DNA of 64,000 nt, from positions 109,992 through 173,991 of the forward strand of contig JAUSPT010000032.1 of NCBI GenBank assembly GCA_030652805.1, given 5' to 3'. Under the pieces are notes generated by a model. The model searched no databases. It saw nothing but the letters and a program-made list of their open reading frames with translations, and had not been told where the DNA came from. Both the position numbers and the translations under genes were made by a program. Source of the stretch: a bacterium. GTDB taxonomy: Bacteria > JAHJDO01. This document shows positions 40,457 through 54,367 of this stretch, one piece after another (position 1 is the stretch's first letter; the number at the start of each line of letters is the position of its first letter).

Positions 40457-40956
40457 CTAAAAATCCATGCAATAAAGGTTCCAACACTCAGAGCCGCTCC
40501 ATAAGGAATCCTTTCACTGTTAGACAGCTTTAAAGCTTCCGTTTTTAACCCGGGCATAATAAAACTCAAAATAAGACGAAAAATATTTTTTAGCCCTCTC
40601 CAGAATGTCCCTTTCCATATCATTACCGCTATTGCCAGTATTCCGCCTGTCAGGATTCCATAAAAACAAGCATTCAAGATAAATGGATACCCTCCAACAG
40701 CTCCAACAGCAGCCATTAATTTAACGTCTCCTCCTCCTACTCCGCCAAAGACAAATACTATGGCAAAAACACAAAACCCAATAGCGAGCCCCAGCATACT
40801 GTTAACCAACCCGCCAACGCCATGATTCCAAACGTTAAGCAACAGCCCTACCGCCACAGCAGGAAAGGTTACACAATTGTATATCTTGTGTGTAATCAAG
40901 TCTGTAACCGCTGATACCAGCAAAAGCAATATTAGTAATATGTCTGAAAATGCCAT
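40453..40956 (-). CDS. tadV: prepilin peptidase CpaA/TadV (A24 family, no methyltransferase domain)
   Basis: 167 aa polytopic membrane protein; A24 pattern (LLLVSAVTDLITHKIYN…). Confidence 0.7.
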   Translation of the reverse strand: MAFSDILLILLLLVSAVTDLITHKIYNCVTFPAVAVGLLLNVWNHGVGGLVNSMLGLAIGFCVFAIVFVFGGVGGGDVKLMAAVGAVGGYPFILNACFYGILTGGILAIAVMIWKGTFWRGLKNIFRLILSFIMPGLKTEALKLSNSERIPYGAALSVGTFIAWIFR

Positions 40957-40964
40957 AAAGTTAA

Positions 40965-41165
40965 TTATTGCGCTGATTCTAAATCATCAGCTGCTTTTTC
41001 AACTTTTGCTGATAACTTGTCTCTAAAATACTGGAACGCAACTATAGCAGCAATGGCTATTAACACCACTATCAGAATATATTCTGTCATGCCCTGCCCT
41101 TCTTCTCCGAATATAATCCCTTTCATTAAGTTTTTAAGCTTCTTCATTTTGTCACCCCCTTTCAT
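40965..41165 (-). CDS. flp: Flp/Fap-family pilin
   Basis: 66 aa; leader then the G|MTEYILIVVLIAIAAIV motif. Confidence 0.75.
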   Translation of the reverse strand: MKGGDKMKKLKNLMKGIIFGEEGQGMTEYILIVVLIAIAAIVAFQYFRDKLSAKVEKAADDLESAQ

Positions 41166-41355: not shown

Positions 41356-42147
41356 CTACCTATAAGCTTCTACCAAAACAACTGTAATGTTATCAACTCC
41401 TCCAGCTTTATTAGCATAGTCTATCATTTCTTCTGCTGCTTTTGAAAGGTTATCTATATGTTTTTTTATAATATCCTCCATTGTCTTTCTTTCCAGCATA
41501 CCGCTCAGCCCATCGGAACATATGAGAAAAATATCTACAGGAACAATATCCTCTTCCTGTAGATCAACCTTGACCTCTTTCTCACTACCCAGAGCCCGTG
41601 TAATAACATTCTTCCAGCGATGCTGTTTGGCTTCCTCTTTCGTTATTACATTCTCTTTAAGTTGCTCATTAACCCATGAATGATCCTCTGTAATCTGCTT
41701 CAGCCTTCCATTTCTCATTAAATACACCCTGCTGTCGCCTACATGCACAACATACCCTTTCGCCTCAGCAATGGATAACCCTGCTATAGTTGTTCCCATT
41801 CCTTTAAGTTCAGGGTTAGAAAATGACATCTCATATATTTTCTTATTAGCAATTCGTACTGCGGTAAGGAGCTTATTAGCCTCAGGCGCTAGTTCTGGGT
41901 TCATCTCAAATGGCCAGGTAATATCATTGTCTTTGGCTGTGCGTTCAATAAAGGCCTTTATTAATTCGATAGATTTGCGACTTGCTACATCACCTGCTGC
42001 ATGCCCACCCATGCCATCAGCTACAAGATAAAGCTTCAGATCATCACTGACCAGAAAGCTATCTTCATTTAGCTTGCGCACTCTGCCTAAATCTGATAAG
42101 CCGTATGCTCTGAACTTCATCTCTAATTTTACTCCTGTAACTGCCAT
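41356..42147 (-). CDS. PP2C-family Ser/Thr protein phosphatase
   Basis: 263 aa; motifs LVADGMGGHAAGDVAS, ICSDGL and GGVDNITVV. Confidence 0.85.
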   Translation of the reverse strand: MAVTGVKLEMKFRAYGLSDLGRVRKLNEDSFLVSDDLKLYLVADGMGGHAAGDVASRKSIELIKAFIERTAKDNDITWPFEMNPELAPEANKLLTAVRIANKKIYEMSFSNPELKGMGTTIAGLSIAEAKGYVVHVGDSRVYLMRNGRLKQITEDHSWVNEQLKENVITKEEAKQHRWKNVITRALGSEKEVKVDLQEEDIVPVDIFLICSDGLSGMLERKTMEDIIKKHIDNLSKAAEEMIDYANKAGGVDNITVVLVEAYR

Positions 42148-42198
42148 ACTGGTTAATTCTAATACTTTTTCTATGCCTTTGTCAATTTTTTATACCAC

Positions 42199-43629
42199 CT
42201 AGCGCTTGAGCTTTCCGTTTGCTGTTTTGTCTAATCGGGCTACACATAGAAATTCTTTTGGAACCTTATATGAAGCTAATCTCTGATAGCAAAATTTGCG
42301 CACACTATTGATATCAAAATCTGTTTTTGCTTTATTTTGCAGAACGATCATTGCACAGGGAAGCTGCCCATACTGAGGATGGGTAATGCCATACACAAGA
42401 GACTCCTTGATGTCAGGATGCTGATTGAGAACTGATTCCACTTCATAGGGAAAGACTTTCATGCCGGCAAAATTAATGATATGTTTTTCTCTGCCAACAA
42501 GAAACAGAAAGCCTTCTTTATCAAGTCTAGCTAGATCCCCTGTCTTAAACCAGCCGTTATGCAATACCTGCTTTTTACTTTGCCATGGAGAAAAGTATGC
42601 ATCAAACATTCCTTTTCCTTTAAGATAAACTTCACCAATCCCCTTAGCATCAGCATTTACTATTTTCACTTCGTAATCTGGTAGAATTCTGCCTACTGAC
42701 TCTTGCTTCGTTTTATCCTCAGAACAATTGAGAAACGGCAGGCCCACTTCAATAATTCCATACGCTTCAGTCAGTTGAAAACCAAACTTTTTATGAAAAT
42801 CATTTGCTATATCAACAGGCAGCTTTACTGCTGTACACACAGCCATACGGATACGACTTAACATATGGGAAGAAAGCATATCCGATTTTGTCAGCATATG
42901 ATAATGGAAAGGTGAAGCGTATATAAATGTTCCTCTGTGGGTTTTCAATTTCTCAAGCAGTAATTCAGGGAATGCGCGGCTGCAGAGAATAATTGTTGCC
43001 CCACGCCGCAGGAAAAGCAGAATCGTTACTACAAAATGAAAACTCATGGAAAGAACCCATATCACTATATCATTTGAAGTGATATTTAACCCTTTATCTG
43101 CAGCATTGGTTCTTTGAATAATGGCTTCATGGGAAATTACTACTCCTTTGCTTACCCCGGTTGTGCCTGATGAAAACCGGATAAAAGCAGGATTTAATGT
43201 ATAATAATCCGCTGGAACCTGTTTCTTCGCTGCGCGTTGATATAGAAAAAACTTTCTTTCACACACACAATCAGAAAAAATTCGAAGGCTGCCATGTTTG
43301 ATACACCTTTCTTTATTAGAGAGCAAAGCATTCACATCAATTTTTTCCAGTATATCATCAACTTCATACATGGATAACGACGTAGATACTGGAACAATAA
43401 CTGCAGGTAAAGACAGTACAGCCAGACTAATAATAATATAATCAATACTATCTTCACATAGTAATGCTACACGTTGAGCTGGCTGAACTCCATATGACTT
43501 TAATTCATCTGTAAGTTTCTCTACAGAAGCAAACAACTCGCCATAAGAAACCTGTTTATTCCCGTCAATGACAGCAATTTTCTTCTGAAGCTTTTTTGTT
43601 TCGCTCTTTATTACATCTACAATATTCAT
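42199..43629 (-). CDS. AMP-dependent synthetase/ligase (fatty acyl-AMP ligase / acyl-ACP synthetase-like)
   Basis: 476 aa; AMP-binding motif FSSGTTGVSKGVV; no CoA-ligase-type C-terminal extension was examined. Confidence 0.75.
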   Translation of the reverse strand: MNIVDVIKSETKKLQKKIAVIDGNKQVSYGELFASVEKLTDELKSYGVQPAQRVALLCEDSIDYIIISLAVLSLPAVIVPVSTSLSMYEVDDILEKIDVNALLSNKERCIKHGSLRIFSDCVCERKFFLYQRAAKKQVPADYYTLNPAFIRFSSGTTGVSKGVVISHEAIIQRTNAADKGLNITSNDIVIWVLSMSFHFVVTILLFLRRGATIILCSRAFPELLLEKLKTHRGTFIYASPFHYHMLTKSDMLSSHMLSRIRMAVCTAVKLPVDIANDFHKKFGFQLTEAYGIIEVGLPFLNCSEDKTKQESVGRILPDYEVKIVNADAKGIGEVYLKGKGMFDAYFSPWQSKKQVLHNGWFKTGDLARLDKEGFLFLVGREKHIINFAGMKVFPYEVESVLNQHPDIKESLVYGITHPQYGQLPCAMIVLQNKAKTDFDINSVRKFCYQRLASYKVPKEFLCVARLDKTANGKLKR

Positions 43630-44927
43630 AAGTCATCATCCCATATCTGCAATGGGGTGTCTTCTGTTCCCTCTGGGACAACAGGTGTTTCAGGATCGCT
43701 GCCGTCAAGATAGACGCCTTGTTGAATAAGCGATTTTCTCACTGCGGCAACAGCAATATGCCTAGGTTGGATGCTTTGTCGTGCCGCCAGTGATGCTGCG
43801 ACACCGGCAGCCTGCCCCGTGGCAAAGCATGGTACTATAAGACGCAAGGAGTTGTCGGCAAGATAGTCAGACGAAATACAACGTCCAGCAACAAGCAATC
43901 CGTCAACGTTCTTCGGAACAAGACATCGAAAAGGAATGTCATAGTTCAACCTTGGCGGATCGTAGAGTTTGTAGCCGAGAAGATACGAGCCCAATCGCGC
44001 AATTGAGTCTTCAAAATGTCGGCTTGATCTGAGGTCATCATCGGTCAGAGTGTATTCCCCTCGGATACGACGGCTCTGCCGTACCCCAAACTGCGGCAGT
44101 GTCTCTTTGATGCGCGCATTCTCCCAACCGGGCATATGAGTGCGCAGATAGTATAAGGAGCGAAAATAATCGCGGCGCATTTGTGTCTCTGCCTTACTAA
44201 CTTCCTCAGCATCTGTCACATCAACCCCTTGTAGATACCGATGACGGTCCAGCATGACACCTCCGTTCAGCCTGCTAGCTTCTGCCACAACTTTCAGGAA
44301 GTGTTCAGGGGACTTCTTCTTAAACACCGCAACTTTTGCGCAGTCTATGCCATCAACTGTTACGCCCAGCGTCACATCGTGAGTATCACTGTCACACTTG
44401 CATCCTGCGCGAAACGCAACATCTGCGTCAGCAGTGCAGTCTATTACAACCTTGGCAAGAATGGCCCTGCGGCCGCTCTTACTCTCGGTGAAGAAACCGC
44501 GAACGTATGCACCATCAGTGATTGGATCACACACCAACGTGTGCAGGAGCAACTCTGCTCCTGCTTCTTCCAGCATTTCTGCAGCCTGCCACTTAAAAAC
44601 CTCTGGGTCAACCGCGTAATCGCCACAGCGATTTGGACCTTGAATTGCGTCAAACGTCTCCATTCGCTTCCTGATATCCAAAGCAATACCGCCAGCTTTG
44701 GGACGAACTCCATCCCCCATACCAAACACCCAGAGAACGTGAGCGCCTGTAATCATCCCTCCAAGATATCCATATCGTTCAACGACGAGCGTTTTCGCTC
44801 CTTCACGCGCGGCAGCAATACCGGCAGCAATACCGGCAGGACCGCCTCCAGCAACAAGCACGTCAACTGTCCTCTCAACTGGAATGCGCTGTTGTGGTTC
44901 AACTTCAATATCGTTATTGTGCATCAT
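43626..44927 (-). CDS. FAD-dependent oxidoreductase (FAD_oxidored family)
   Basis: Rossmann motif VLVAGGGPAGIAAGIAAAREG; conspicuously GC-rich (about 50%+) compared with flanking genes. Confidence 0.65.
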   Translation of the reverse strand: MMHNNDIEVEPQQRIPVERTVDVLVAGGGPAGIAAGIAAAREGAKTLVVERYGYLGGMITGAHVLWVFGMGDGVRPKAGGIALDIRKRMETFDAIQGPNRCGDYAVDPEVFKWQAAEMLEEAGAELLLHTLVCDPITDGAYVRGFFTESKSGRRAILAKVVIDCTADADVAFRAGCKCDSDTHDVTLGVTVDGIDCAKVAVFKKKSPEHFLKVVAEASRLNGGVMLDRHRYLQGVDVTDAEEVSKAETQMRRDYFRSLYYLRTHMPGWENARIKETLPQFGVRQSRRIRGEYTLTDDDLRSSRHFEDSIARLGSYLLGYKLYDPPRLNYDIPFRCLVPKNVDGLLVAGRCISSDYLADNSLRLIVPCFATGQAAGVAASLAARQSIQPRHIAVAAVRKSLIQQGVYLDGSDPETPVVPEGTEDTPLQIWDDDL

Positions 44928-46249
44928 AGATTCTGTTCCTCCTCTTTTGCCTCTCCTTCTAAGAGAGTGTGAGTTAATACTCCTAGTCCAGAACGCAAAG
45001 TGTGTATAATTGAATCTATCTCATCCTTTTCCAACATCTCATCTAAATAGGAAAAGACCACATTTAGCTTGCCCTGAAACTGGTTGAAGAATATTCCAAG
45101 CCCCGGAGGAATTGGAACTCTGGGCATATGGAAAATATTATGGATTTTTTTTCCCATAAACATCGGAGAATCGTATGCAGATTCGCCAATATAGGAAAAA
45201 CAAAAAGAAGCAATCTGCCCTTTTAACGGCATCCGCATTAGATAACTTAAAACAGGTAAAGGTGCAATTCGCATCAAAAGACTTGCTTTCTCAATATCCG
45301 CAGGTAAGTCTGCCTTTATCTGATCGTAGATCTGCTGTTTAATTGATTGCAAAAGAACAGAAAAACTATCAGCCTCATTTGCTTTCACTCGAAGCAGGAA
45401 AAAGGACATATGATTAAAGAAAATCTCTTGATGTACCTTTTCTACTGGACGCGTATCAATAGACACAGGAATTATATAATCACCTGTGAGTATACCCCTT
45501 TTGAGAAAAATGCTGTGCAAAGCCTCCATGGAAATTGCCAATGCATACGGCATAAGCATTAAATAACCTGCTTTATTATATGCAGTTTCGATAATTGCAG
45601 ATGTCTGGCGTTTATCAAGCGAGATTATCTTAAATTTAAATCCCTGATTGTTAACCACTGAATGTAAAGGCAAAAAGCGGGATTTATTCTCTGACAATTG
45701 TACCAGCTTCCTATTTACACGCTTACCTGCTTCAAATTTTTCCTGCCACTTACATAGATGAGCTGGTTCTGTAAGAGAAATCCTCTGGGAATAATCCATA
45801 TTCAAGAATGCTTCAGCTCCTCTGACGTCAAACAAACAATGGTCAAACACTACCCCTAGAAAACTTGTTTCTCCCGTATGGACAAGATGAAATGCAAGAT
45901 GCTCCTTAATACTGTTAAAGGGCATGTTTACTCCTTGCTCCAGTGTAAAGAGCACTTTGCTAAATGTTGCATTATCATCAAGGCGGTAAGTCCTGATGTT
46001 CGGAGAGAGCATTTTATTATTGGAATAAATCTTCCAGTATGGAGCAAGGTTGTAATTCCGCATCGGTCTGCCATTTACAACCGGAAATTTTTTAATGAAT
46101 TTGTTCAGGCATTCCCGAAGTGTTGTCTCATCAAGCGTGCCTTTCAGTTGAAGAACAACCTGAAACATGTTCCCAACGCCAGTTTCCTTTTTGTTAATAT
46201 GGTTAATTGTATGAATGATCCAGTCAACACCAGTTAAATAGCGTTTCAT
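44924..46249 (-). CDS. condensation-domain-like acyltransferase (C-domain / WS-DGAT / PapA5 superfamily)
   Basis: 441 aa; HxxxD motif in context (GVVFDHCLFDVRG) about 135 aa from the N-terminus. Confidence 0.4.
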   Translation of the reverse strand: MKRYLTGVDWIIHTINHINKKETGVGNMFQVVLQLKGTLDETTLRECLNKFIKKFPVVNGRPMRNYNLAPYWKIYSNNKMLSPNIRTYRLDDNATFSKVLFTLEQGVNMPFNSIKEHLAFHLVHTGETSFLGVVFDHCLFDVRGAEAFLNMDYSQRISLTEPAHLCKWQEKFEAGKRVNRKLVQLSENKSRFLPLHSVVNNQGFKFKIISLDKRQTSAIIETAYNKAGYLMLMPYALAISMEALHSIFLKRGILTGDYIIPVSIDTRPVEKVHQEIFFNHMSFFLLRVKANEADSFSVLLQSIKQQIYDQIKADLPADIEKASLLMRIAPLPVLSYLMRMPLKGQIASFCFSYIGESAYDSPMFMGKKIHNIFHMPRVPIPPGLGIFFNQFQGKLNVVFSYLDEMLEKDEIDSIIHTLRSGLGVLTHTLLEGEAKEEEQNL

Positions 46250-46250
46250 T

Positions 46251-46496
46251 CTAACTCATTCTGCTGATATATGACGCCAGCAAGTGGATGGTTTGAGAGT
46301 TTTCTCGTGTTAGTCCTGATTCCATTAACTTTAGATTAAATGTTTTTTCAATAAACACCAGAAGCTCCACAAAGCTAAATGAATCAACTCCTAGTGTGTG
46401 AAGAGGAGCATTTGAAGAAATTGTTGAAGAGTCTACATCTAATATTGTAGCAATCTCTTGGATCAGTGTTTCCTCGATATGTTTTACAGTCAACAT
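46251..46496 (-). CDS. acyl carrier protein
   Basis: 81 aa; phosphopantetheine site LGVDSFSFVEL. Confidence 0.75.
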   Translation of the reverse strand: MLTVKHIEETLIQEIATILDVDSSTISSNAPLHTLGVDSFSFVELLVFIEKTFNLKLMESGLTRENSQTIHLLASYISRMS

Positions 46497-46511
46497 GCAG
46501 CTTGTATCCTT

Positions 46512-47552
46512 TTACACAGTCAATTTAATAACAGCTTTTTCTCCTCCACAATTATACCTAATACAACTGATTCTCCGTATTTGAGCAGGTTCAGTCTTTG
46601 TGCATAGATTTATATTGTAGGGATTATGGCTAACTAGGCATGCGTAGTGTAGCTGCTTTTTTAACATGAGAGCAGCAGCAGCACAATTAAAACTTGTTCC
46701 AGTCATCATACTGCCGAATATTGGCGAATACCCTGAGATGCAAACACCTGATTCTGCAGCCTTTTGATATTCTTTCTCGTCTCCTGCAATACCGTCGGCA
46801 TCAAGAATGAACATATCCGGTCTATTTTTTTCAACCTCTTTATCATTTAAAGAGATGGCTGTTATTTCACAATATTTCTTATGAGATTTCTCCAGTGTCA
46901 TCAGAAAGAATACACTTCCCTCTCCTGGTACTGCTACAGGCGTTTTTGAAAAATTAAATGGTTTGATTCTGCCATCTCCAGCAATTCGCAACTTTTGCCT
47001 GCAGATGTATTCCATAACTGTGCCGCATTCATCAACGCTTCCAACAAGAACATATTCACACCGTTTCTCATAAAGCCAGGCTCGCGCAAGGATAAGAGCC
47101 TGGTGAAACGAAAATGCAAACTGAGTAAGTGTAATGGTTGGGCCACGGCTATCTAACACAGATGTAATATAAGACGCTGCTGCATTATGGACAGAATGAG
47201 AAAATATGGTTGGAGAAGCATTCCTATCACCATATTCAAGCATATCATCCAGAAAGCGGAATGTTGTTACATGCGGACCAAATGCTGTTGAGACAATAAT
47301 ACCAAGAGAAGATTTCTTTTTATTAAAATTAATGCCACTATCCACTACAGCGTCACTGGCTGCTAATACTGCCATTTTACTGAATCTATCCGCACGACGT
47401 ATCCCGCCCAAAATTCTTTTGTCTGTGATTGATTCTTCCTTCACATGATAACCAGAATCTTCAGGCTTTATCCATCCATGCCTCAATGCGTCATCATAGC
47501 GGTTAATTCCCCGTCCCCCGCTAAAAACAACACCTATTCCAAAAATATTCAT
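46512..47552 (-). CDS. ketosynthase-like protein lacking active-site Cys (chain-length-factor-like KS partner)
   Basis: 346 aa thiolase-fold; the KS Cys position reads TQFAFSF; start overlaps the upstream KS stop (coupled). Confidence 0.55.
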   Translation of the reverse strand: MNIFGIGVVFSGGRGINRYDDALRHGWIKPEDSGYHVKEESITDKRILGGIRRADRFSKMAVLAASDAVVDSGINFNKKKSSLGIIVSTAFGPHVTTFRFLDDMLEYGDRNASPTIFSHSVHNAAASYITSVLDSRGPTITLTQFAFSFHQALILARAWLYEKRCEYVLVGSVDECGTVMEYICRQKLRIAGDGRIKPFNFSKTPVAVPGEGSVFFLMTLEKSHKKYCEITAISLNDKEVEKNRPDMFILDADGIAGDEKEYQKAAESGVCISGYSPIFGSMMTGTSFNCAAAALMLKKQLHYACLVSHNPYNINLCTKTEPAQIRRISCIRYNCGGEKAVIKLTV

Positions 47553-48673
47553 GCTCCTCTCCCAATAACAATCGCAGCATTGTTGCCGCCAAAGGCAAGG
47601 GACGTAGAAAGGGCAAAAGATCCGTGTATGCTCGTCTTCTCTCTAACCGGCGTTATAGGTATTTCATCATCCTGATTTACAAAACCAGCGCTTGCAGGTA
47701 TCCATCCTTCCAGAAGCGCAGCACCTGTAAAAACAGCTTCCAATCCTCCTGCGCCGCCAAGTGTATGCCCCGTAAATCCCTTTGTAGAAAGAACCTTAAT
47801 ATCCTTACCAAAAACCCTTGCTAGAACCATACCCTCAACTTTATCATTATCCCGGGTTGCAGTGCCGTGAGCATTAACAAAACAGACCTCTTGAGAACTA
47901 ATGCATGCTTCAGAAAGCGCTCTCTGAATCGCTGCTTCCAATCCTGTACCATCAGGTCTTGGAGCAGTAAGATGATAGGCGTCTGCTGAAGCGCCGTATC
48001 CAGCAAGATACAATCTAGGGGCATTGCCCGAGGCATTGCCTCTCTTACAAGCACATGCTTCTCTCTCAAGCACAAGAATTCCAGCACCTTCCCCTAAGTT
48101 TAATCCTTTACGATCTCTGTCAAATGGAGCGCATAATGATTCACTGACAATCCCAAGTGCCCCAAAACCGCATATAGGAATACGGTTCAATTCGTCTGCG
48201 CCACCGGCAATAGCGATATCACACTCTCCATTCCTTAACCAGGATAACGCTACTCCAATCGCATCAGCGCCTGAAGAACATGCATTAACCACAGTAACAC
48301 GTGGACCTTTTGCTCCTATAGTATTTGCAACAGCTTGGGCAAGGTTTCCTTTTAAAAATCGGTCGACAGAATCCATCGGGGCTTTTCCCGAACTCCTGTA
48401 CGAATGATAGAAGTCAACATCATTTAACTGGCTTGCCACAGTAGTCCCAAGACATACTCCTACACGAAAATCCTCAATGCGTTTTTTTAGTTCTGCCTTA
48501 TTTAGGGCTTCCTCTACTGCGCACAAAGCAAGACTTAAAGTGCTCATTCTGTGTTCAAAGACTGGTTTTTTATTTACTTGTCCGCGCTGAAATGTATCCA
48601 GTGTTTCTGTGAGATTTGTACCTGCAGCAGAAATCGCACCCATGCCTGTTATTATTATGTTTGTTTTCTCCAT
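47549..48673 (-). CDS. beta-ketoacyl-ACP synthase (KAS I/II-like)
   Basis: 374 aa; active-site NACSSGADAIG; HGTATRDND and GHTLGGAGG motifs. Confidence 0.85.
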   Translation of the reverse strand: MEKTNIIITGMGAISAAGTNLTETLDTFQRGQVNKKPVFEHRMSTLSLALCAVEEALNKAELKKRIEDFRVGVCLGTTVASQLNDVDFYHSYRSSGKAPMDSVDRFLKGNLAQAVANTIGAKGPRVTVVNACSSGADAIGVALSWLRNGECDIAIAGGADELNRIPICGFGALGIVSESLCAPFDRDRKGLNLGEGAGILVLEREACACKRGNASGNAPRLYLAGYGASADAYHLTAPRPDGTGLEAAIQRALSEACISSQEVCFVNAHGTATRDNDKVEGMVLARVFGKDIKVLSTKGFTGHTLGGAGGLEAVFTGAALLEGWIPASAGFVNQDDEIPITPVREKTSIHGSFALSTSLAFGGNNAAIVIGRGA

Positions 48674-48700
48674 GAAACTCCGTTGAGAGAAAATGCGAAT

Positions 48701-48982
48701 TTATGCTGCTGTATTCTCGTATATATATTGTGCCAGAGTGTCGATTGAATAAAATATTTTTCTGCCCTGATCCATATCTTTGATTTCTAACCCAAAATTC
48801 CGCTGCAATAGCACAACAATTTCTACTGCATCTAAAGAATCCAGTCCAAGTCCTTCGCCAAACAGAACCTCGTCATCTTTAATATCTTCAGGTTTTACAT
48901 TCTCTAATGATAGGCTGCTTACAAGCAGTTTTTTTAACTTGTTTCGTATTTCCTTCAATTCTTTTTGTTTCTGCTCTGCCAT
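48701..48982 (-). CDS. acyl carrier protein (second copy)
   Basis: 93 aa; LGLDSLDAVEIV phosphopantetheine motif. Confidence 0.75.
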   Translation of the reverse strand: MAEQKQKELKEIRNKLKKLLVSSLSLENVKPEDIKDDEVLFGEGLGLDSLDAVEIVVLLQRNFGLEIKDMDQGRKIFYSIDTLAQYIYENTAA

Positions 48983-49093
48983 TTAATCTTCTCCTATATT
49001 TAGCGGTATTCAACAAGCGATATCATATCCTCTTATTGCTCTTTTTTCAAGGAACAATTCCAACACGGTATAAGAGTGGATTTTTGGCAACCA

Positions 49094-49711
49094 TTAGAAT
49101 GGGAAACTGATTCCGATAATGATTTTGCTTGAATTAAGTGGTACGTTGGGTTGCTTCATGCCAGCGTTAGATATGTGATGAAATCTATATTCTAACACAA
49201 ATGAACGGCCTTTTCTGGTCTTGTAACTAAGTCCTAGTCCCGCTTGATAATTCCCGCAGATATTGGCGCCCATGCCAGGTATGTTCGCTTCCGTATAGAC
49301 AGGACCGCCGCCCACGAAGAAATATGGCATGTATCTTTGCGATGTCTTCAGCGTCCAGGATGAAAGAAAGTTCAAGCCAAAAATCCGGCCATCATCAGGC
49401 TTAATAAGATAAGACACAGGTAGTTCTATCAGGAAGTTATGACTTCCGCGGTACCAGTCACGTCCAGTATCTTTGAGTTTTCGCCTATATCGCAGAATTA
49501 CATCCACTGTCTCAACATGTTCACGAGTTTTGCCGAGTCCCGGATGCGTGGTACTGTAGCCGCTCAGCAACATCCATGATTCATCAGTTTGATCCGTATC
49601 GGCAAAGGCAACGTTAATTGCAACAACTGTGAACAGCAGTATCAGGCAGATTAATTTCATGGCGCACACCAAATCACTGAAGAGCATCTTTGTTCTGTTC
49701 ATTCTTCCCAT
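49094..49711 (-). CDS. PagL-like outer-membrane lipid deacylase / acyloxyacyl-hydrolase-family beta-barrel
   Basis: 205 aa; signal peptide; C-terminal Phe; HHISNAG (His/Ser pair as in PagL). Confidence 0.45.
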   Translation of the reverse strand: MGRMNRTKMLFSDLVCAMKLICLILLFTVVAINVAFADTDQTDESWMLLSGYSTTHPGLGKTREHVETVDVILRYRRKLKDTGRDWYRGSHNFLIELPVSYLIKPDDGRIFGLNFLSSWTLKTSQRYMPYFFVGGGPVYTEANIPGMGANICGNYQAGLGLSYKTRKGRSFVLEYRFHHISNAGMKQPNVPLNSSKIIIGISFPF

Positions 49712-50619
49712 ACATCACGAAATAAAAAATATTGATAAGGGTGTTTGTGTGTATATGCTTCAAGCAACGCGGCAAATTTTTGAACCCATTGCTGTAGTTG
49801 ATGGTGTTTATCCTTTTCACTAATATAGCATGGATACAGCACATTAGATACATCAACAATGTACTGATAAGTAGATACTTTCTCTGACAATAGAACAACC
49901 ACCGGACATCCTGCCGCTGCTGCAATTGTAAAGCCGCCGTATGGGAACCAGGCTTTCTCTCCAAGAAATGAAACTTCTACGGCTTTAAACCCATATCTGC
50001 GGTCACCCATAATGGACACAATATGTTTTTCCTTTAATTTATTCATGATTTCAACAATTCCACCAAGATCTTGTTCAGGAGAAATAATCTTGATATGGTT
50101 CTGTTCCCTGCTGATACGCAGTGAACTTTGCACTGCAGGGTTATCTTCCGGACGCATAACAAGATACACCGTTTTTTCCAGTTTTTTTAATGCTGTCATA
50201 GCGACCTGCCAGTTACCAACATGAGCAGTTAGTAAAATTATTCCATGAGGAGAATTCTGAATCAGGGACATCAATTGTTCATATCCATGTAATTGGATAT
50301 CAAATATTTCCTGCCCTGAAACAATAGCGTATCGATCAATAAGCTGTTTTCCCTGACTTACAAACAATCTATATACGTGTCTCAGCCTTTTTACAAAACC
50401 ATGTGATGGAAACCTTCTGTTAATATACGCCAAAGCTCCACAAACAGCTGCTTGGTCAAACAGCACATAATAGATACAGACAATATATAATAATCCATAC
50501 GCTCCTCTTAACCCAAAAAAGCGCAGAGAAATCCTAAAAAACCAGAATCCAAGGGCATTCCCTCTTTTTTTTGCTTCAATTTTTCGAGATGCTTTAGCTT
50601 TTTTCATTTTTACCATCAA
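49699..50619 (-). CDS. LpxL/HtrB-family (lysophospholipid acyltransferase superfamily) acyltransferase
   Basis: 306 aa; N-terminal membrane anchor; LPLAT-type fold pattern; first gene of the cluster. Confidence 0.6.
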   Translation of the reverse strand: MMVKMKKAKASRKIEAKKRGNALGFWFFRISLRFFGLRGAYGLLYIVCIYYVLFDQAAVCGALAYINRRFPSHGFVKRLRHVYRLFVSQGKQLIDRYAIVSGQEIFDIQLHGYEQLMSLIQNSPHGIILLTAHVGNWQVAMTALKKLEKTVYLVMRPEDNPAVQSSLRISREQNHIKIISPEQDLGGIVEIMNKLKEKHIVSIMGDRRYGFKAVEVSFLGEKAWFPYGGFTIAAAAGCPVVVLLSEKVSTYQYIVDVSNVLYPCYISEKDKHHQLQQWVQKFAALLEAYTHKHPYQYFLFRDVWEE

Positions 50620-50755
50620 CTTTTTTTGCGTTCAAGTCTGTTTTTTCTATGTAAAGATTATCAAGCGGGCTTTTGACCCCAAACTGATATAATAAGCATA
50701 ACTACACAAAGTGGCAAAATCAAGCCTAAAACTCGTATTTTCGCACAAAAATCCT

Positions 50756-50809
50756 TTGACACATATAAAATTATTCGCTATCTTGAACACAATAAAGGTA
50801 ACTGTTCAA
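50756..50809 (+). promoter_or_regulatory. candidate hcp promoter with overlapping 7-13-7 palindromic operator
   Basis: TTGACA (50756-50761), 17-nt spacer, TATCTT (50779-50784). TTGAACA (50783-50789) / TGTTCAA (50803-50809) inverted repeat overlaps the -10 and +1 region. AGGAGG RBS lies before the ATG at 50859. Confidence 0.35.
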
Positions 50810-50858
50810 TGATGTACGTTATATATGGCTTAACACAAAATCGAAAGGAGGAACGATC

Positions 50859-52502
50859 ATGTTTTGTTTTCAATGTCAGGAAACGGCTAAAAACCAAGGC
50901 TGCACCGTAAAAGGCGTGTGCGGAAAACCCGAGGAGACCGCGGACCTGCAGGATCTGCTCATTTACGTGTGTAAAGGAATCTCGATCTATGGTGAAAAGT
51001 TAAAGGAAATGGGCACTATGGGCAAGAACGCAGCCCACTTCGTGTGCAAGGCACTTTTTACCACCATCACCAATGTGGCATGGGACGATGATGTCGTCAT
51101 CGGCCGGATCAAGGAGGGTTTCAGGGTTCGGGACGCAGTCAGGGAAAAGGCCGGAGCCGCCATGTCCGGCGCGCTTCCGGATTGCGCCACCTGGTTCTCA
51201 GAGGACAAGGAGGCCATCATGGCCAAGGCCATGTCCGATGAAGTGCGCATCACCACCGCTGAAAACGAGGACGTGCGCTCCCTCAGAGAGCTGCTCATCA
51301 TCGGCTGCAAGGGAATCGCAGCTTATGCCGATCATGCCGCGATTCTTGGTCATGAGAAGGATGATATCTACGGCTTCCTCATGGAGGCCCTGGCATCCAC
51401 CACCAAGGATCTTTCAACGGATGAGATGATCGCCATGGTCATGAAGGCAGGGGAGATGGCTGTAAATACTATGGCCCTTCTGGATGAGGCCAATACAACT
51501 GCCTATGGCAATCCCGAGATCACGGAGGTCAACATCGGCGTCAGAAACAATCCCGGAATCCTGATCTCCGGCCACGACTTGAAAGACATGGAAGAACTGC
51601 TCAGGCAAACCAAAGACGGGTGTGATGTTTACACCCACGGGGAAATGCTGCCGGCCAACTACTATCCGGCCTTTAAGAAGTATGACCATTTCGTGGGCAA
51701 CTACGGCGGGTCGTGGTGGCATCAGAACAAGGAATTCGAATCCTTTAACGGCCCCATCATTCTGACAACCAACTGCCTGATTCCCATCAAAAAGGAAAAC
51801 ACCTATCTGAAACGGCTCTTTACTACCGGCGTCGTCAACTATCCCGGGGCCAAACACATCGCGGACAGGCCGGAAGGCGGGACAAAGGATTTCTCCCCGG
51901 TCGTGGCGCTGGCGAAAACATGCAAGTCACCGGAAGAGATAGAATCTGGCAAGATCGTTGGTGGGTTCGCCCATAACCAGGTCCTGGCCCTGGCTGACAA
52001 AGTGATCGACGCCGTTAAGTCAGGAGCCATCAAACGCTTTGTTGTCATGGCCGGGTGCGACGGCCGCCAAAAAGCCCGAAGTTATTTTACTGAAGTGGCC
52101 GAGAAGCTGCCCGAAGACACGGTAATTCTCACCGCCGGATGCGCCAAATACCGCTACAACAAGCTGGCACTGGGTGACATCGGCGGTATTCCCCGCGTGC
52201 TGGACGCCGGTCAGTGCAACGACTCCTACTCCCTGGCGGTGATCGCCTTGAAACTCAAGGAAGCATTCGGACTGAACGACATCAATGAGCTACCCGTCTC
52301 TTACGACATCGCCTGGTACGAGCAAAAAGCAGTGACCGTGTTGCTGGCCCTGCTGTTTCTCGGCGTCAAAGGAATTCGCCTGGGTCCCACATTGCCGGCC
52401 TTCCTGTCTCCCAATGTGGCCAAGGTCCTGGTGGAAAAATTCGACATCAAACCTATTGGAACCGTGCAGGATGATATTGTGGCAATGATGAAAGGAGAAT
52501 AA
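50859..52502 (+). CDS. hcp: hybrid cluster protein / hydroxylamine reductase
   Basis: 547 aa; N-terminal Cys cluster [23 protein letters not shown]; GC about 55%, far above the window background. Confidence 0.9.
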
Positions 52503-52540
52503 TACGGTTTGAATGAAAAATACGATATAACAAGGCGCTC

Positions 52541-52777: not shown

Positions 52778-54367
52778 ATGATACAGGCGAATAATCAAGT
52801 TCCGGACAGGTGTGATGTTGTAGTCATCGGAGCAGGGGCAGGTGGACTCACCGCAGCAGGGCTTCTCTCAAGGGTTGGTCTTCAAACAGTAGTTCTTGAG
52901 ACTCAGCCACAGCCGGGGGGATACCTGGCAGGTTTTCAGCGACAGGGCTTTCAGTTCAACACTTCCATCCAATGGCTCAATCAATGCGGTCCCGGCGGAT
53001 TCGTCTACAACATCTGGCGTCATTTAGGCGGCGAGTTTCCAACCTGCGCACCGTTGACTCGCATACACAGATATAAAAGCGATTCGTTCGACTATTTGCT
53101 GAGTTCCAATCCTATCGACTTACAGGATTGCCTTATCAAGGACTTTCCTGATGATGAGAGCGGTATCAGAGCTTTTTTCAAGGATGGGGAAAGACTTGGA
53201 CAGCGGCTGAATGTCCTGAACAGCAGGACAATGGCGAAAGAGACCATGCCATTCTTTGAAAGAGTTATTCGCAACTTACAAATGCTGTTTTGGGCAATTC
53301 CTGTCGCTAAATACGTGATGAGCCCTGTCGAGAAAGGGCTGCGCCGCTATTTCAGTACGGAGGGTGCTCAAAAGATATTCTGCAGTCAAGAATCCTTTAT
53401 GTCCGTTATGGTGCCTATCGCTTGGGCATTCGCCGGAAATTTTCAAACTTGTCCCAAAGGAGGAAGTCGCACACTGGCTTTATGGCTGTGTGAGAGAATC
53501 AGATCTGCCGGGTCGAAAGTATTGCTGAACCAGCACGTGGAAAGAGTGCTGTTAAACGCTAGAAAAGAAGCGACCGGTGTATTACTGGCAGACGGAAGTT
53601 CTCTGAGAGCTCGATACGTGATTGCAGCCTGCGACGTACAGATGCTCTATGAAAAGATGCTGCCGGACGGCTGTATTCCGGTACGGATGCGAAAAGCACT
53701 GCATAATGCCGATATTTATCATTCCAGCTTCAGCATATTTCTGGGACTGGATTGCGATGCTTCTTCTTTGGGATTCGGAGAAGAAGTATTGAATCTCACT
53801 AGGAGCGATGTATCACGTGAAGATCACATGAGTGGTGACCCACATCGCACGATCATGGTCGTCATCGCGCCTTCAGTTCGTGATTCTTCTCTGGCACCGG
53901 AAGGCAAGGGAACCCTTATGATACATTGTCCGGCGTATCTCGATTACGAAGACAATTGGAGAACCGGCAAGGGGCTGGCGAGGGGCGAGCCCTACAGAGC
54001 ATTGAAAAGAAAGTTTGCCGACATCCTGCTGGCCCGGATTGAGAAAACCTTCGCTCCCGGGCTGAGGAAGCACATAGAGGTGATGGAGATTGCAACACCT
54101 GTAACATACTGGCGATATACGGGCAACACCAAGGGAAGCATTTCAGGGATTAAACCAACGGGAAGAAATATCAGAATCAGTGTAGCACGTTACAAAACGC
54201 CTGTGAAGAATTTATTGTTGGGAGGTCATTGTGCAGAATACGGCGGGGGTGTTCCAATGGCTGTAAAGGCCGGTGCGAATGCTAGTCTCATCGTCATGAA
54301 AGACATGAAAAGAGCGGCTTACGATGAACTGAAAGACGTAATAAACGGCGTAGAAAGGCACCACTGA
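52778..54367 (+). CDS. phytoene-desaturase-like (CrtI/COG1233) FAD/NAD(P)-binding oxidoreductase
   Basis: 529 aa; N-terminal VVVIGAGAGGLTAAGLLSRVGLQTVVLE dinucleotide-binding motif; moderately GC-rich. Confidence 0.65.
   Translation: MIQANNQVPDRCDVVVIGAGAGGLTAAGLLSRVGLQTVVLETQPQPGGYLAGFQRQGFQFNTSIQWLNQCGPGGFVYNIWRHLGGEFPTCAPLTRIHRYKSDSFDYLLSSNPIDLQDCLIKDFPDDESGIRAFFKDGERLGQRLNVLNSRTMAKETMPFFERVIRNLQMLFWAIPVAKYVMSPVEKGLRRYFSTEGAQKIFCSQESFMSVMVPIAWAFAGNFQTCPKGGSRTLALWLCERIRSAGSKVLLNQHVERVLLNARKEATGVLLADGSSLRARYVIAACDVQMLYEKMLPDGCIPVRMRKALHNADIYHSSFSIFLGLDCDASSLGFGEEVLNLTRSDVSREDHMSGDPHRTIMVVIAPSVRDSSLAPEGKGTLMIHCPAYLDYEDNWRTGKGLARGEPYRALKRKFADILLARIEKTFAPGLRKHIEVMEIATPVTYWRYTGNTKGSISGIKPTGRNIRISVARYKTPVKNLLLGGHCAEYGGGVPMAVKAGANASLIVMKDMKRAAYDELKDVINGVERHH

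Follow-up and report, generated by a model that had tools for sequence, protein, structure and literature searches.

The window analysed here is a stretch of 64 kb, part of a 184-kb contig, and contains nine ORFs at positions 42199–50619, all on the minus strand (Table 1). The preliminary description of nine co-oriented and mostly coupled genes is borne out by the ORF list, the strand and the overlaps. Neighbouring genes overlap by 4 nt at the KS/CLF (CLF start and KS stop), Cond/FAD and FAD/ligase junctions; spacing measures 1 nt between ACP2 and Cond, 15 nt between CLF and ACP2, and 27 nt between ACP1 and KS. The PagL and LPLAT genes also overlap, and the 111-nt gap between PagL and ACP1 is the sole sizeable one. 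The LPLAT gene likely starts at the ATG at 50616.

Table 1. Genes and other features at the locus, positions as in the window
Feature	Position	Strand	Details
LPLAT, LpxL/PatA-family (Lip_A_acyltrans) membrane acyltransferase	49699..50619	-	306 aa; PF03279 E 1e-16
PagL-family outer-membrane beta-barrel esterase	49094..49711	-	205 aa; PF09411 E 2e-16, over gathering score
ACP1, KS-adjacent carrier	48701..48982	-	93 aa; PP-binding E 5e-9; DSL serine motif
KS, active ketosynthase	47549..48673	-	374 aa; ketoacyl-synt N E 6e-31, C E 8e-25
CLF, KS-like catalytically dead partner	46512..47552	-	346 aa; ketoacyl-synt E 4e-15, Ketoacyl-synt_2 (PF13723) E 1e-9
ACP2, carrier	46251..46496	-	81 aa; PP-binding and ACP_SdgA_C E 4e-9; DSF serine motif
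Cond, stand-alone condensation/CAT-superfamily enzyme	44924..46249	-	441 aa; D-H-xxx-D motif
PF12831 FAD-dependent oxidoreductase	43626..44927	-	433 aa; FAD_oxidored E 3e-89
ANL-superfamily adenylating enzyme (ligase)	42199..43629	-	476 aa; AMP-binding E 2e-57 and AMP-binding_C
Replaced DNA segment	43633..44977	.	last 53 nt of Cond and whole flavoenzyme gene
Divergent intergenic region	50620..50858	.	upstream of operon
Sigma-70-like site	50717..50689	-	TTGCCA-17-TATTAT, 10/12 matches
Phytoene-desaturase-like flavin amine oxidase	52778..54367	+	Amino_oxidase E 2e-18

Promoter-like sites are overall not in excess (23, versus 23.6 by chance), and the sigma-70-like site upstream of the operon is therefore weak evidence. 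The 3' boundary of the operon is marked by a strong promoter-like site at 42185..42156, assigned to the following gene, PP2C. At the opposite side an hcp gene is inserted between the operon and the divergent amine oxidase gene. The latter, possibly an accessory gene of the cluster, is the direct neighbour of LPLAT in L084, the nearest relative. L018, L019 and L021 have homologues (50% identity) 7–9 kb beyond the cluster on its downstream side, and identity with the N-terminal fragment of Kuenenia kuste3336 is 32%. Domain searches revealed no KR, DH, ER or TE in the cluster, as previously stated, or in its flanks, and these functions, as well as FabD, transporters and glycosyltransferases, are missing from the whole window. 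The operon is thus not self-sufficient, and such functions would need to be encoded elsewhere in the genome. FabH, FabG, FabZ and FabI are likewise missing, no housekeeping fab gene being found nearby, and the sole SDR of the window is an unrelated partial gene (2–538) in a sulfatase context. The window also encodes a secretin and LysM/GNA1162 lipoproteins, together with split HldE-like genes; judged by these, the organism appears to be diderm, with heptose-containing LPS.

Catalytic residues of the KS (Cys132, His269, Lys298, His303) are invariant in 28/28 aligned KS sequences. The protein scores under every FabF/FabB cut-off, and fails KasA and the other KS models of NCBIfam; best scores are obtained with PRK09185 (284 bits, cut-off 407), FabF (247 bits, equivalog cut-off 494) and AmcF (216 bits, cut-off 325). 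Identity to ApeO is 33% (E 5e-61); the best PDB match is 9s5h_B (189 bits), and T. thermophilus FabF scores 184 bits. Compared with the nearest relative, the KS carries a 10-aa in-frame deletion. The adjacent protein had been described as a KS devoid of the active-site Cys, and all four catalytic positions are indeed replaced: the Cys position, Ala in the window, varies across the family (A/S/F/H/R/Y), the first His is changed to Asp, the Lys to Ser or Ala, the second His to Ser. Since a dead partner with its own substitution pattern is conserved across phyla, the CLF is not a pseudogene. Its best PDB matches, 9s5h_C (E 2.5e-5) and ApeC (7f28_A, E 1.6e-3), are both weak. KS and CLF match best the paired chains 9s5h_B and 9s5h_C, a precedent for a KS/CLF heterodimer, and a further one is provided by the ApeO:ApeC complex 7f28. 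A preprint describes an anammox FabF2/FabFmut heterodimer (bioRxiv 10.64898/2026.05.19.726425), to which, from chain pairing and date, 9s5h would correspond.

The two carriers differ in their relatives. ACP1 scores 77 bits with the NCBIfam model PRK09184, over the cut-off of 70, and is 38% identical to ApeE (E 3e-17) and 41.6% to the Kuenenia ACP kuste3340 (E 1e-17; the Kuenenia comparison used N-terminal protein fragments). ACP2 is always encoded directly upstream of the Cond gene, an adjacency found in 60 loci. The ligase, which retains the C-terminal GK motif, is predicted to be an acyl-CoA or acyl-ACP ligase of the FadD/MenE/MatB-like type. Every NCBIfam match is under its cut-off; among PDB entries, malonyl-CoA synthetase, MenE and oxalate-CoA ligase come nearest (about 140–153 bits). 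No BLAST match was found to ApeH, nor to the fragment of Kuenenia kuste3344. PaaK-type and FAAL assignments were rejected.

Cond, the signature gene of the cluster family, encodes a protein with no Pfam match, whose closest structural neighbour is AzeD; this is no acyltransferase but a dehydratase whose substrate is a free small molecule. The flavoenzyme is nearest in fold to fumarate and urocanate reductases, geranylgeranyl reductase and ketosteroid dehydrogenases. Blastn comparison of four related loci (L084, L003, L005, L006) with the window revealed a replaced segment in which nucleotide similarity to the nearest relative is absent, both flanks being 89–92% identical. The usual flavoenzyme of the cluster is a 394-aa PF12831 protein; that of the window is a GC-rich distant paralogue of the 433-aa type, from a subfamily found elsewhere beside glycoside hydrolases. 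The identical replacement occurs in L088 and L089, and the 4-nt overlaps were kept at both ends. On these sequence grounds, and beyond what the preliminary description had noticed, the flavoenzyme gene is a recent, precise non-orthologous replacement, and its product may not carry out the original step.

The LPLAT has a hydrophobic N-terminus and scores 56.8 bits against an LpxL cut-off of 248, under all NCBIfam LpxL cut-offs (248–439); its score on a PIM-acyltransferase model is similar. Homology extends to residues 258–550 of E. coli ApeJ (26% identity over 300 aa, E 4e-18). All of 35 family members share H133-x-G-x-W-Q138 and D206; the LpxL motif HX4(D/E) carries an acidic residue where the LPLAT family has Gln. 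The PagL protein begins with a signal-like segment. In an alignment with P. aeruginosa PagL (2erv) it matches the catalytic H-x-S, and Asn takes the place of Glu140; H179-x-S181 and N193 do not vary among 15 members. Its gene has a GC content of 0.44, versus about 0.38 in neighbouring genes. Homologues reside in 12 of 31 complete related loci, mostly downstream and on the opposite strand, and are absent from the other 19; loci of Nitrospirota are among those with a PagL homologue close by. PagL is hence a recurrent, non-universal associate of the cluster, which the preliminary description had not recognised.

The order LPLAT-ACP1-KS-CLF-ACP2-Cond-flavoenzyme-ligase is syntenic in 80 species-level genomes, all MAGs, from at least 6 phyla, and loci were found in Desulfobacterales, Nitrospirota/Thermodesulfovibrionia, Omnitrophota, Geobacteraceae, Planctomycetota, Verrucomicrobiota and Kiritimatiellae. 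As the order recurs in so many loci of several phyla, the grouping is far beyond chance. The pathway is so far confined to uncultured anaerobes. Long forms of the cluster usually include two to four B12-radical-SAM enzymes and a GT2-DUF2062 glycosyltransferase, and further a second KS with a short CLF, a polysaccharide-deacetylase-like gene, DH, TE, and lipoproteins; the radical-SAM pair is kept in 21/31 complete loci. The window features the short form, without these genes: compared with L084, it is devoid of the rSAM-rSAM-GT2 block. An identical short form is found in two other assemblies, where upstream neighbours differ. Values of dN/dS per gene measure 0.12–0.25 versus L084 and 0.04–0.29 versus L088 (0.26 for the replacement flavoenzyme); by this measure all operon genes are under purifying selection.

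Comparison with the APE proteins of E. coli CFT073 relates the KS to ApeO, the CLF (of the PF13723 type) to ApeC, ACP1 to ApeE and the LPLAT to the C-terminal half of ApeJ; in the relatives, GT2 corresponds to the N-terminal part of ApeJ (E 1.5e-36), and TE to ApeK. Part of the long-form gene content is common to the Kuenenia 'ladderane candidate' locus: among the N-terminal fragments compared, kuste3342 is similar to rSAM_b (44.5% identity, E 5e-35), kuste2803 to rSAM_a (41%), and kuste3335 to GT2 (35%). On sequence evidence, the family is the counterpart, outside anammox bacteria, of their 'ladderane candidate' clusters. FAS-II, the canonical APE cluster, aromatic type II PKS and the cispentacin-type system were all rejected for the operon. 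The earlier assignment to a specialised type-II-PKS/FAS-like lipid cluster, neither FAS-II nor standard APE, is in accord with these homologies.

The nine genes form one operon, the short form of a conserved type-II FAS/PKS-like pathway which probably makes a specialised lipid of the cell envelope; we infer its biochemical steps throughout by analogy. An A-T-C-like cassette together with a KS/CLF extension cassette would build an acyl chain destined to be anchored on an envelope lipid. The ligase would adenylate a carboxylic acid and load ACP2, as A-T pairs do in type II NRPS or ApeH/ApeE, and the flavoenzyme would oxidise or reduce C-C/C=C bonds of the acyl group on the carrier. The KS and its dead partner, acting as a heterodimer, would extend a chain with malonyl units on ACP1; reduction and dehydration, if any, would be borrowed from housekeeping FAS, being cluster-encoded in long-form relatives. 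Through His137, Cond would off-load the ACP2-bound group or join it to a hydroxyl or amine, an AzeD-like dehydratase role being less probable. The membrane-anchored LpxL/ApeJ-C-like LPLAT would then move the finished acyl chain onto a membrane (glyco)lipid acceptor, and at the outer membrane the PagL-family barrel would trim an acyl chain bound as an ester.

It is unlikely that the genes serve lipid A remodelling, KS, CLF and ACP making a secondary acyl chain which the LpxL-like enzyme adds, as PagL removes the primary 3-O-acyl chain. The adjacency of the Lip_A_acyltrans and PagL genes, the recurrence of PagL homologues near the cluster in Nitrospirota and others, and a host apparently diderm with heptose-containing LPS are consistent with it, but the LPLAT, at 57 bits, is far from the LpxL cut-offs and comparable on the PIM-acyltransferase model, features Gln at the acidic position, and has as sole counterpart among the directly compared characterised clusters the C-terminal domain of ApeJ, no lipid-A enzyme. 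Moreover, PagL is missing from most complete loci and is a compositional outlier in the window, and known lipid-A pathways offer no role for the A-T-C-flavoenzyme cassette.

Equally doubtful is a small soluble type II PKS/NRPS-like product, as in the cispentacin or coronafacic-acid pathways, in which the KS/CLF-like pair would perform one or few extensions on an adenylated acid, and the C-like enzyme would serve for tailoring, as a dehydratase or as an amide synthase. Membrane LpxL/ApeJ-type acyltransferases in every cluster, and the GT2-DUF2062 membrane glycosyltransferase of long forms, the lipoproteins and PagL point instead to a membrane-bound product. The KS matches AmcF, both ACPs match AmcB and the CLF matches AmcG, but at scores well under cut-offs (216 vs 325, 42 vs 80, 27 vs 80); the similarity of the ligase to short-acid ligases (those cited above and coronafacate ligase Cfl), that of Cond to AzeD, and the lack of KR, DH and ER for a long reduced chain fit the soluble product.

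It is quite improbable that the operon is a decaying remnant which makes nothing any more, its radical-SAM/glycosyltransferase half lost and its flavoenzyme gene disrupted: the missing block, retained as a radical-SAM pair in most complete loci, the hcp insertion and the replaced FAD gene suggest decay, but the nine ORFs are intact, catalytic residues are kept, dN/dS is low for every gene including the replacement, overlaps are preserved on both of its sides, and the short form persists in two other assemblies whose upstream genes differ. A FAS-II housekeeping operon carrying a FabF pseudo-copy, the case named beforehand as contrary to a specialised cluster, accounts for two ACPs and two FabF-like thiolase-fold proteins, but is already refuted by the domain scores, the absence of fab genes, a dead partner conserved across phyla, and a C-like enzyme, ANL ligase and LPLAT foreign to fab operons.

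For the specialised envelope lipid favoured here, lack of the radical-SAM/glycosyltransferase half and the swapped flavoenzyme suggest that the window product is simpler than the long-form product, probably an unmodified version of it. The preliminary description is extended: the nine genes represent the stripped-down, conserved core of a much larger, widespread and uncharacterised family, in which radical-SAM enzymes, a glycosyltransferase and a second KS/CLF accompany this core.

As the preliminary description had it, the locus consists of nine consecutive ORFs on the minus strand, running from 50619 to 42199, and the sizes reported for them proved exact. The genes are mostly coupled: adjacent ORFs overlap by 4 nt or are separated by 27 nt at most, the sole exception being the 111 nt between the PagL and ACP1 genes. 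Significant Pfam matches were found in 8 of the 9 ORFs; the remaining one, which encodes a stand-alone condensation-like protein (Cond), matches no Pfam or NCBIfam model.

Genes of the lipid operon, in order of transcription, and other features of the window
Feature	Position	Strand	Size	Annotation
LPLAT (acyltransferase)		-	306 aa	Lip_A_acyltrans (Pfam)
PagL		-	205 aa	PagL (Pfam)
ACP1		-	93 aa	PP-binding (Pfam)
KS	47549-48673	-	374 aa	ketoacyl-synt N and C domains (Pfam)
CLF (dead KS-like partner)		-	346 aa	ketoacyl-synt / Ketoacyl-synt_2 (Pfam)
ACP2		-	81 aa	PP-binding (Pfam)
Cond	44924-46249	-	441 aa	
flavoenzyme		-	433 aa	FAD_oxidored PF12831 (Pfam)
ligase (ANL)		-	476 aa	AMP-binding + AMP-binding_C (Pfam)
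Tad pilus locus	26312-41000	-		
PP2C phosphatase gene	41356-42147	-		
hcp	50859-52502	+		Prismane/Hcp
amine oxidase gene	52778-54367	+		Amino_oxidase
three-gene block	54606-57615	+		DUF6036 nucleotidyltransferase, patatin-like phospholipase, GNA1162-like/LysM lipoprotein
two-gene block	57624-59426	-		3-dehydroquinate synthase II (PF01959), DeoC/LacD-family aldolase
two-gene block	61446-62911	-		PfkB-kinase, cytidylyltransferase

The boundaries of the operon are clear on both sides. The downstream PP2C phosphatase gene has its own strong promoter-like site, and is followed by the Tad pilus operon; upstream, and divergently oriented, are found hcp, which encodes a hybrid-cluster protein, and, farther out, the gene of a phytoene-desaturase-like amine oxidase. 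Promoter and terminator counts were no higher than the shuffled expectation, so the scan adds little support to these boundaries, and no RNA family was detected in the window by Rfam. KR, DH, ER and TE genes are missing from the cluster and its flanks, as first noted, and FabD is likewise absent; neither Pfam searches nor ORF reading revealed fabD, fabH, fabG, fabZ or fabI between 26 and 64 kb.

Other loci of the window were noted in passing. The Tad pilus locus is a long same-strand array directly downstream of the lipid operon. It includes genes for a Ser/Thr kinase with C-terminal NHL-like repeats, three FHA-domain or TPR-like proteins, TadB/TadC, CpaF with an FHA N-terminus, secretin, CpaB, TadE-like proteins and a prepilin peptidase, and is apparently wired to FHA/kinase/PP2C signalling. 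The 3-dehydroquinate synthase II and aldolase genes, which adjoin each other, represent, in a bacterium, the ADH synthase/DHQS-II route of archaeal type into aromatic amino-acid synthesis. PfkB-kinase and cytidylyltransferase are encoded by separate genes resembling a split HldE (heptose activation), which suggests that the host organism makes a heptose-containing LPS.

The catalytic set of the KS (Cys132, His269, Lys298, His303) is invariant in 28 aligned family members, as in ApeO and ApeR. The partner protein, initially described as Cys-less, is changed at all four catalytic positions (Cys to a variable residue, Ala in the window; His to Asp; Lys to Ser or Ala; His to Ser). This pattern is kept across phyla, and CLF is therefore a dedicated non-catalytic partner, not a pseudogene. 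Scores of the KS are below all curated models, being 247.5 bits with FabF TIGR03150 (cut-off 493.75), 130.6 bits with FabB (cut-off 630) and 284 bits with PRK09185 (cut-off 407). Relative to the orthologue in the nearest relative (locus L084, contig JBDRTG010000007.1), the KS features a 10-residue in-frame deletion after residue 40 (VKSIPKKWQK in L084), located in an N-terminal loop already short in comparison to FabF.

Several known families can be set aside. A housekeeping FabF accompanied by a pseudo-copy, which the preliminary description had named as the finding that would overturn its reading, is excluded because the KS fails the curated models, the LPLAT is under the LpxL cut-offs, and the window has no fab operon. 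Housekeeping FAS-II is ruled out by the NCBIfam cut-offs together with gene content, and the earlier statement that the locus is not FAS-II stands, the KS being under the FabF/FabB equivalog scores. Membership in the cispentacin/coronafacic-acid (Amc-type) KS-CLF group was rejected on scores under the NCBIfam equivalog cut-offs for AmcF (216 versus 325), AmcG (27 versus 80) and AmcB (42 versus 80). As to aromatic type II PKSs, the Cys position of CLF is occupied by A, S, F, H, R or Y, never by Q, no cyclase genes are present in the cluster, and the KS scores 116 bits with the actinorhodin KS versus 184–189 bits with FabFs. In the PDB, the KS and CLF of the window match best to chains B and C, respectively, of a single entry from 2026 (9s5h), taken to be the anammox FabF2/FabFmut heterodimer, the margin over ordinary FabF being small (189 versus 184 bits).

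The remaining functional labels originally attached to the genes were retained. The two ACPs are discrete proteins, each with a conserved phosphopantetheine serine. The adenylating enzyme has the N- and C-domains of the ANL superfamily (AMP-binding, E 2e-57; AMP-binding_C, E 2e-18), and its C-terminus (TANGKLKR) carries the usual G-K motif with the catalytic Lys. The ligase has no FAAL-type insertion, as it measures 476 aa and is matched best by enzymes about 500 aa long. An amino acid is an improbable substrate, since acid-CoA ligases head the ANL matches, and the score with the NRPS A-domain model TIGR01733 is 159.5 bits, cut-off 317. Cond fits the CAT superfamily, in which the fold has two lobes and the catalytic His, part of an (H/x)HxxxD motif, sits where the lobes meet; the term condensation-like can therefore be kept. 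The motif D-H137-xxx-D141 is invariant in 386 Cond homologues, and resembles the DHRxxDG motif of E2 acyltransferases, to the catalytic domains of which the family profile matches in this region. The fold does not discriminate between transferase and dehydratase activity.

The LPLAT is a member of the broader Pfam family PF03279. H133-x-G-x-W-Q138 and D206 are invariant in the family, and a PDB search with the sequence gave no matches. A bona fide LpxL/LpxM was rejected, as the best score is 56.8 bits versus cut-offs of at least 248, and the motif is H133-VGNW-Q138, with an invariant Gln, rather than HX4(D/E). The PagL-like protein matches PF09411 with 60.7 bits (gathering cut-off 23), and the His and Ser residues are kept. 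Similarity to the lipid A 3-O-deacylase PagL of P. aeruginosa (PDB 2erv) involves the Pfam family, a signal-like N-terminus and the H-x-S-N motif; overall sequence similarity is marginal (E 0.2). H179-x-S181 and N193 are invariant in the family, and the former can be aligned to the catalytic H-x-S of the P. aeruginosa enzyme. The third position of the triad, in contrast, is an invariant Asn in the window's family and Glu140 in P. aeruginosa PagL. The OMPLA triad is His-Ser-Asn, an arrangement which the Asn of the window's PagL family matches. PagL and the lipoproteins recurrent in related loci point to an outer-membrane destination of the product.

Comparison with aryl polyene (APE) clusters was carried out by searching the window with all 18 Ape proteins of E. 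coli CFT073 (apeA-R, NC_004431.1, 1143727-1158748; tblastn). Both systems follow a type II FAS/PKS-like logic, with discrete ACPs and an adenylating enzyme. The KS is similar to ApeO (33% identity, E 5e-61) and ApeR (E 2e-39), and ACP1 is 38% identical to ApeE. CLF is a non-catalytic partner of the PF13723 type (E 1e-9), weakly similar to ApeC (E 2e-3), and longer (346 versus 240 aa). LPLAT aligns to residues 258-550 of ApeJ (26%, E 4e-18), and a GT2 protein encoded by long-form relatives, described below, aligns to the N-terminal part (35%); the GT2/LPLAT pair thus corresponds to a split ApeJ. A thioesterase matching ApeK is found in long-form relatives, and an ApeI-like dehydratase only in these, as in locus L083. 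No counterparts of ApeB, D, G, H, I, K, L, M, N and P were found in the window, the LolA-like, MMPL and DUF3261 export genes (ApeL/M/N) gave no tblastn matches over its whole length, and the ligase has no BLAST similarity to ApeH at E<=0.01. The search for ApeQ, ApeP and ApeI hit only the sole SDR of the window (with ApeQ), an unrelated, truncated gene at 2-538 whose context is sulfatase/URO-D. APE clusters offer no counterpart to ACP2, Cond, PagL, the ligase or the flavoenzyme, and relatives of the cluster carry up to four B12-radical-SAM (rSAM) enzymes, in contrast to none in the E. coli CFT073 cluster. Lacking the ketoreductase ApeQ, the dehydratases ApeP/ApeI, the ApeL/M/N export genes, the methyltransferase ApeB, and ApeD, the locus is not a standard APE cluster, as had been anticipated. 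It falls outside the APE, FAS-II, aromatic type II PKS and cispentacin families.

Scanning one genome per GTDB species with the 441-aa Cond identified 96 loci, 80 of which were fetched. All 80 are from MAGs or uncultured genomes, and reside in Desulfobacterales (including Desulfonema), Nitrospirota/Thermodesulfovibrionia, Omnitrophota, Geobacteraceae, Planctomycetota, Verrucomicrobiota, Kiritimatiellae, and unclassified "bacterium" lineages. No cultured carrier of Cond was found in the 80 species-representative loci or the best 120 matches of two homologue searches, bar "Desulfococcaceae bacterium HSG8" and MAG-derived names, and a homologue search from a Geobacteraceae seed returned metagenomic proteins only. 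The Cond family comprises 302 clusters (50% identity) at E<=1e-30 in a full HMM search of 1.84 billion representatives. The gene order common to the loci, determined by tblastn with the nine window proteins, is LPLAT, ACP1, KS, CLF, ACP2, Cond, flavoenzyme, ligase.

The ORFs of these loci were all clustered, recurrent families were annotated, and a census was made of the 31 loci with full flanks. Many relatives have a long form of the cluster. Its 5' part reads KS2 (a second KS), short CLF (225 aa), B12-rSAM_a, B12-rSAM_b, GT2-DUF2062, LPLAT, ACP1; a polysaccharide deacetylase gene may follow, then KS, CLF, a facultative lipoprotein gene, ACP2 and Cond; the 3' part includes a 394-aa PF12831 enzyme, the ligase and PagL, with B12-rSAM_c and B12-rSAM_d optionally preceding and following the ligase. 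PagL mostly lies on the other strand. The same picture emerges from precomputed Pfam annotation of three contigs, where a 4HBT thioesterase and an ApeI/FabA-like dehydratase join the cluster at its 5' end. The window has the short form: rSAM a to d, GT2-DUF2062, the ApeI-like dehydratase, the 4HBT thioesterase, short CLF and the lipoproteins are all missing from its whole length (tblastn). B12-rSAM enzymes, searched in the 64 kb with the four families of the relatives, are present in 21 of the 31 complete related loci. In the Desulfobacterales long form L082 (= L023), two toxin-antitoxin pairs, PhdYeFM/PIN and BrnT/CopG-like, are inserted inside the biosynthetic cluster, between the CLF and ACP2 genes (6661-7988).

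Kuenenia FAS-like clusters include radical-SAM, phytoene-desaturase-like, glycosyltransferase and "phenylacetyl-CoA ligase" genes and Cys-less FabF paralogues (Rattray 2009, PMC2649909). The "ladderane candidate" clusters are kuste3335-3352, kuste2802-2805 and kuste3603-3608, and synteny was noted in Desulfotalea, Geobacter and Pelobacter (PMC2649909). Heterologous expression of Kuenenia genes gave no product (PMC4790861), and ladderane biosynthesis is listed as unresolved in a 2026 review (PMC13459092). The anammox FabF2/FabFmut pair has been shown in a 2026 preprint to be a KS/CLF-like heterodimer (bioRxiv 10.64898/2026.05.19.726425). BGCs called "ladderane" by antiSMASH have been reported from Desulfobacterota, Omnitrophota, Verrucomicrobiota and other phyla, their function not being known (PMC9902471).

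The comparison with Kuenenia used gene fragments of about 130 aa, from the synthetic genes in the Javidpour supplement, with which weak matches of KS and CLF are uninformative. Like the anammox clusters, the locus combines a discrete ACP, an active FabF-like KS and a Cys-less partner. The kuste3342 fragment matches rSAM_b of the relatives (44.5% over 128 aa, E 5e-35), kuste2803 rSAM_a (41%), kuste3335 the GT2 (35%), and kuste3340 ACP1, both of the relatives (41%) and of the window (41.6%, E 1e-17). The "unknown" kuste3345 is a short CLF-like protein. The phytoene-desaturase-like gene may have an equivalent in the amine oxidase gene, which runs divergently, with hcp between it and the operon, and adjoins the cluster in L084; its product is 32% identical to the N-terminal fragment of kuste3336, a fragment limited to the FAD-binding region. 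The polysaccharide deacetylase is alike by Pfam family only, the kuste3351 fragment having no BLAST match, and the kuste3344 ligase is PaaK-type and does not match the FadD/MenE-type ligase of the window. Unlike the Kuenenia clusters, the window lacks radical-SAM, FabZ, FabG and methyltransferase genes; conversely, the published list of Kuenenia genes mentions neither PagL nor a condensation-like protein, an LpxL-family acyltransferase or a PF12831 enzyme. There is no sign that the source organism belongs to the anammox bacteria. Given the matches of the kuste fragments to rSAM, GT2 and ACP1, the long-form family is related in gene content to kuste3335-3352, the locus for which synteny with Desulfotalea, Geobacter and Pelobacter was noted, and is set apart from it by the ACP2-Cond-PF12831-FadD-type-ligase cassette.

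Stand-alone A-T-C ("type II NRPS-like") and FadD-PapA systems include VibE/VibB/VibH, SgcC1/SgcC2/SgcC5, and mycobacterial FadD with PapA5. Sequence identity to these systems is only 11–13%, and their HHxxxDG motif differs from the D-H-xxx-D of the window family, as found in E2 acyltransferases; unlike them, the cassette of the window is joined to a KS/CLF lipid pathway. AzeD (PDB 8s6l), a dehydratase of the azetidomonamide pathway, is the founding member of a clade of stand-alone C-proteins (bioRxiv 10.64898/2026.07.17.738954). AzeD and Cond are both discrete proteins of about 430–440 aa in which the first His of HHxxxDG is replaced and the second kept, but identity is 13%, and the motifs are P-H-xxx-D-G and D-H-xxx-D-x-x-G, respectively. 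Moreover, the substrate of AzeD is a free bicyclic carbamate of an NRPS pathway, whereas the Cond gene is always ACP-flanked and resides in a KS/ACP lipid cluster. Nothing useful on PF12831 function was found in the literature.

Window and L084 are collinear and 89–95% identical at the nucleotide level, with three differences. First, the interval 43633-44977, spanning the last 53 nt of Cond and the entire flavoenzyme gene, shows no nucleotide similarity to the 393-aa PF12831 gene of L084. Second, about 2 kb with hcp are inserted between the amine oxidase and LPLAT genes. Third, the rSAM-rSAM-GT2 block which L084 carries beyond the amine oxidase is absent, and nucleotidyltransferase, patatin-like lipase and lipoprotein genes are found instead. 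The replacement flavoenzyme gene has a GC content of 0.51 versus about 0.38 for the operon. Its product is about 25% identical to the native enzyme, to which it is homologous full-length (hhalign probability 100%), and is part of a very large subfamily, in which close members are encoded next to glycoside hydrolases. The swap is cassette-like and precise, the 4-nt start/stop overlaps being kept on both sides; through the swap, Cond gains a new 17-residue C-terminal tail (…LTHTLLEGEAKEEEQNL), common to P0002 (L088).

Two further assemblies, L088 (= GCA_018812485.1) and L089, have an identical short form of nine genes that includes the 433-aa flavoenzyme, and in L088 at least the upstream neighbour differs from that of the window. 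An assembly chimera as the source of the odd flavoenzyme is unlikely, as the swap occurs with precise junctions in L088 and L089 also; its presence there, and purifying selection on the gene, argue against an artefact. dN/dS values of all genes, new flavoenzyme included, are 0.12–0.25 versus L084 and 0.04–0.29 versus L088, indicating that the short form is maintained by selection. As a reduced variant in which the flavoenzyme has been swapped, the cluster belongs to a widespread family seen before yet uncharacterised.

Additional features were observed around the operon. The hcp tract (50606-52596) lies exactly between two genes contiguous in L084; hcp has GC 0.54 and GC3 0.68, versus 0.39 for the window, and looks like a recent insertion of foreign DNA. 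The PP2C protein is 100% identical in the window and L084, and dS (0.012) is far under that of the flanking genes (0.13–0.42), suggesting that recombination or gene conversion between the lineages of the window and L084 affected this tract very recently. GC is low (0.34–0.35) in the three-gene block found where L084 has rSAM-rSAM-GT2, and the presence of a lipase gene next to a lipid cluster may be a coincidence. The amine oxidase gene (GC 0.49) is 95% identical to that of L084 at the DNA level versus 89% for the operon. Homologues at 50% identity reside 7–9 kb downstream of the cluster in L018, L019 and L021 (Desulfobacterales-type), and the gene may be a loosely linked accessory of the family.

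Gene content, scores, and the APE and anammox comparisons support and extend the original assignment to a specialised lipid / type-II-PKS-like class. The conserved adjacency ACP2-Cond-flavoenzyme-(rSAM)-ligase would form a stand-alone A-T-C-like cassette that includes a flavoenzyme for tailoring. An acid would be loaded on ACP2 by the ligase and modified there by the flavoenzyme, together with a B12-rSAM in long forms, and Cond may join or release the ACP2-bound group. Similarly, LPLAT-ACP1-KS-CLF would be an APE-like extension and anchoring cassette, in which the KS/CLF heterodimer would extend a chain on ACP1, and LPLAT, resembling the C-terminal part of ApeJ, would pass it to a membrane acceptor, presumably glycosylated by the GT2-DUF2062 protein in long forms. 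In the short form, any reduction or dehydration would have to be supplied from elsewhere in the genome, failing which the chain would stay short or unreduced. The finding alone does not reveal a new mechanism.

The family, abundant in uncultured anaerobes, is related to APE and anammox "ladderane candidate" clusters. The analysis delimits a discrete, easily recognised sub-family marked by a 440-aa stand-alone condensation-like protein, with a canonical gene order, and a compact nine-gene version without radical-SAM genes, kept by selection. In MAGs from anoxic habitats, clusters of this general type have time and again been called "ladderane" BGCs, their products not being known (PMC9902471). 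The anammox clusters are the sole genetic lead to ladderane biosynthesis, still unsolved in 2026 (PMC13459092; bioRxiv 10.64898/2026.05.19.726425). The short form has a size tractable for synthesis and heterologous expression, and provides a natural "minus radical SAM" comparison. It is conceivable, though rather unlikely, that the cassette (ACP2, C-protein, PF12831, FadD-type ligase), combined with the APE/ladderane-type KS-CLF-ACP-acyltransferase core, makes a previously unrecognised class of outer-membrane lipids of many uncultured anaerobes (Desulfobacterales, Thermodesulfovibrionia, Omnitrophota, Geobacteraceae, PVC), sister to the anammox ladderane machinery, the short form without B12-radical-SAM making the unmodified scaffold. 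If so, a comparison of short-form and long-form products would directly reveal how radical-SAM enzymes alter the acyl chain in ladderane-type clusters; and should the product prove to be a new envelope lipid of anaerobes abundant in sediment and groundwater, it could become a biomarker.
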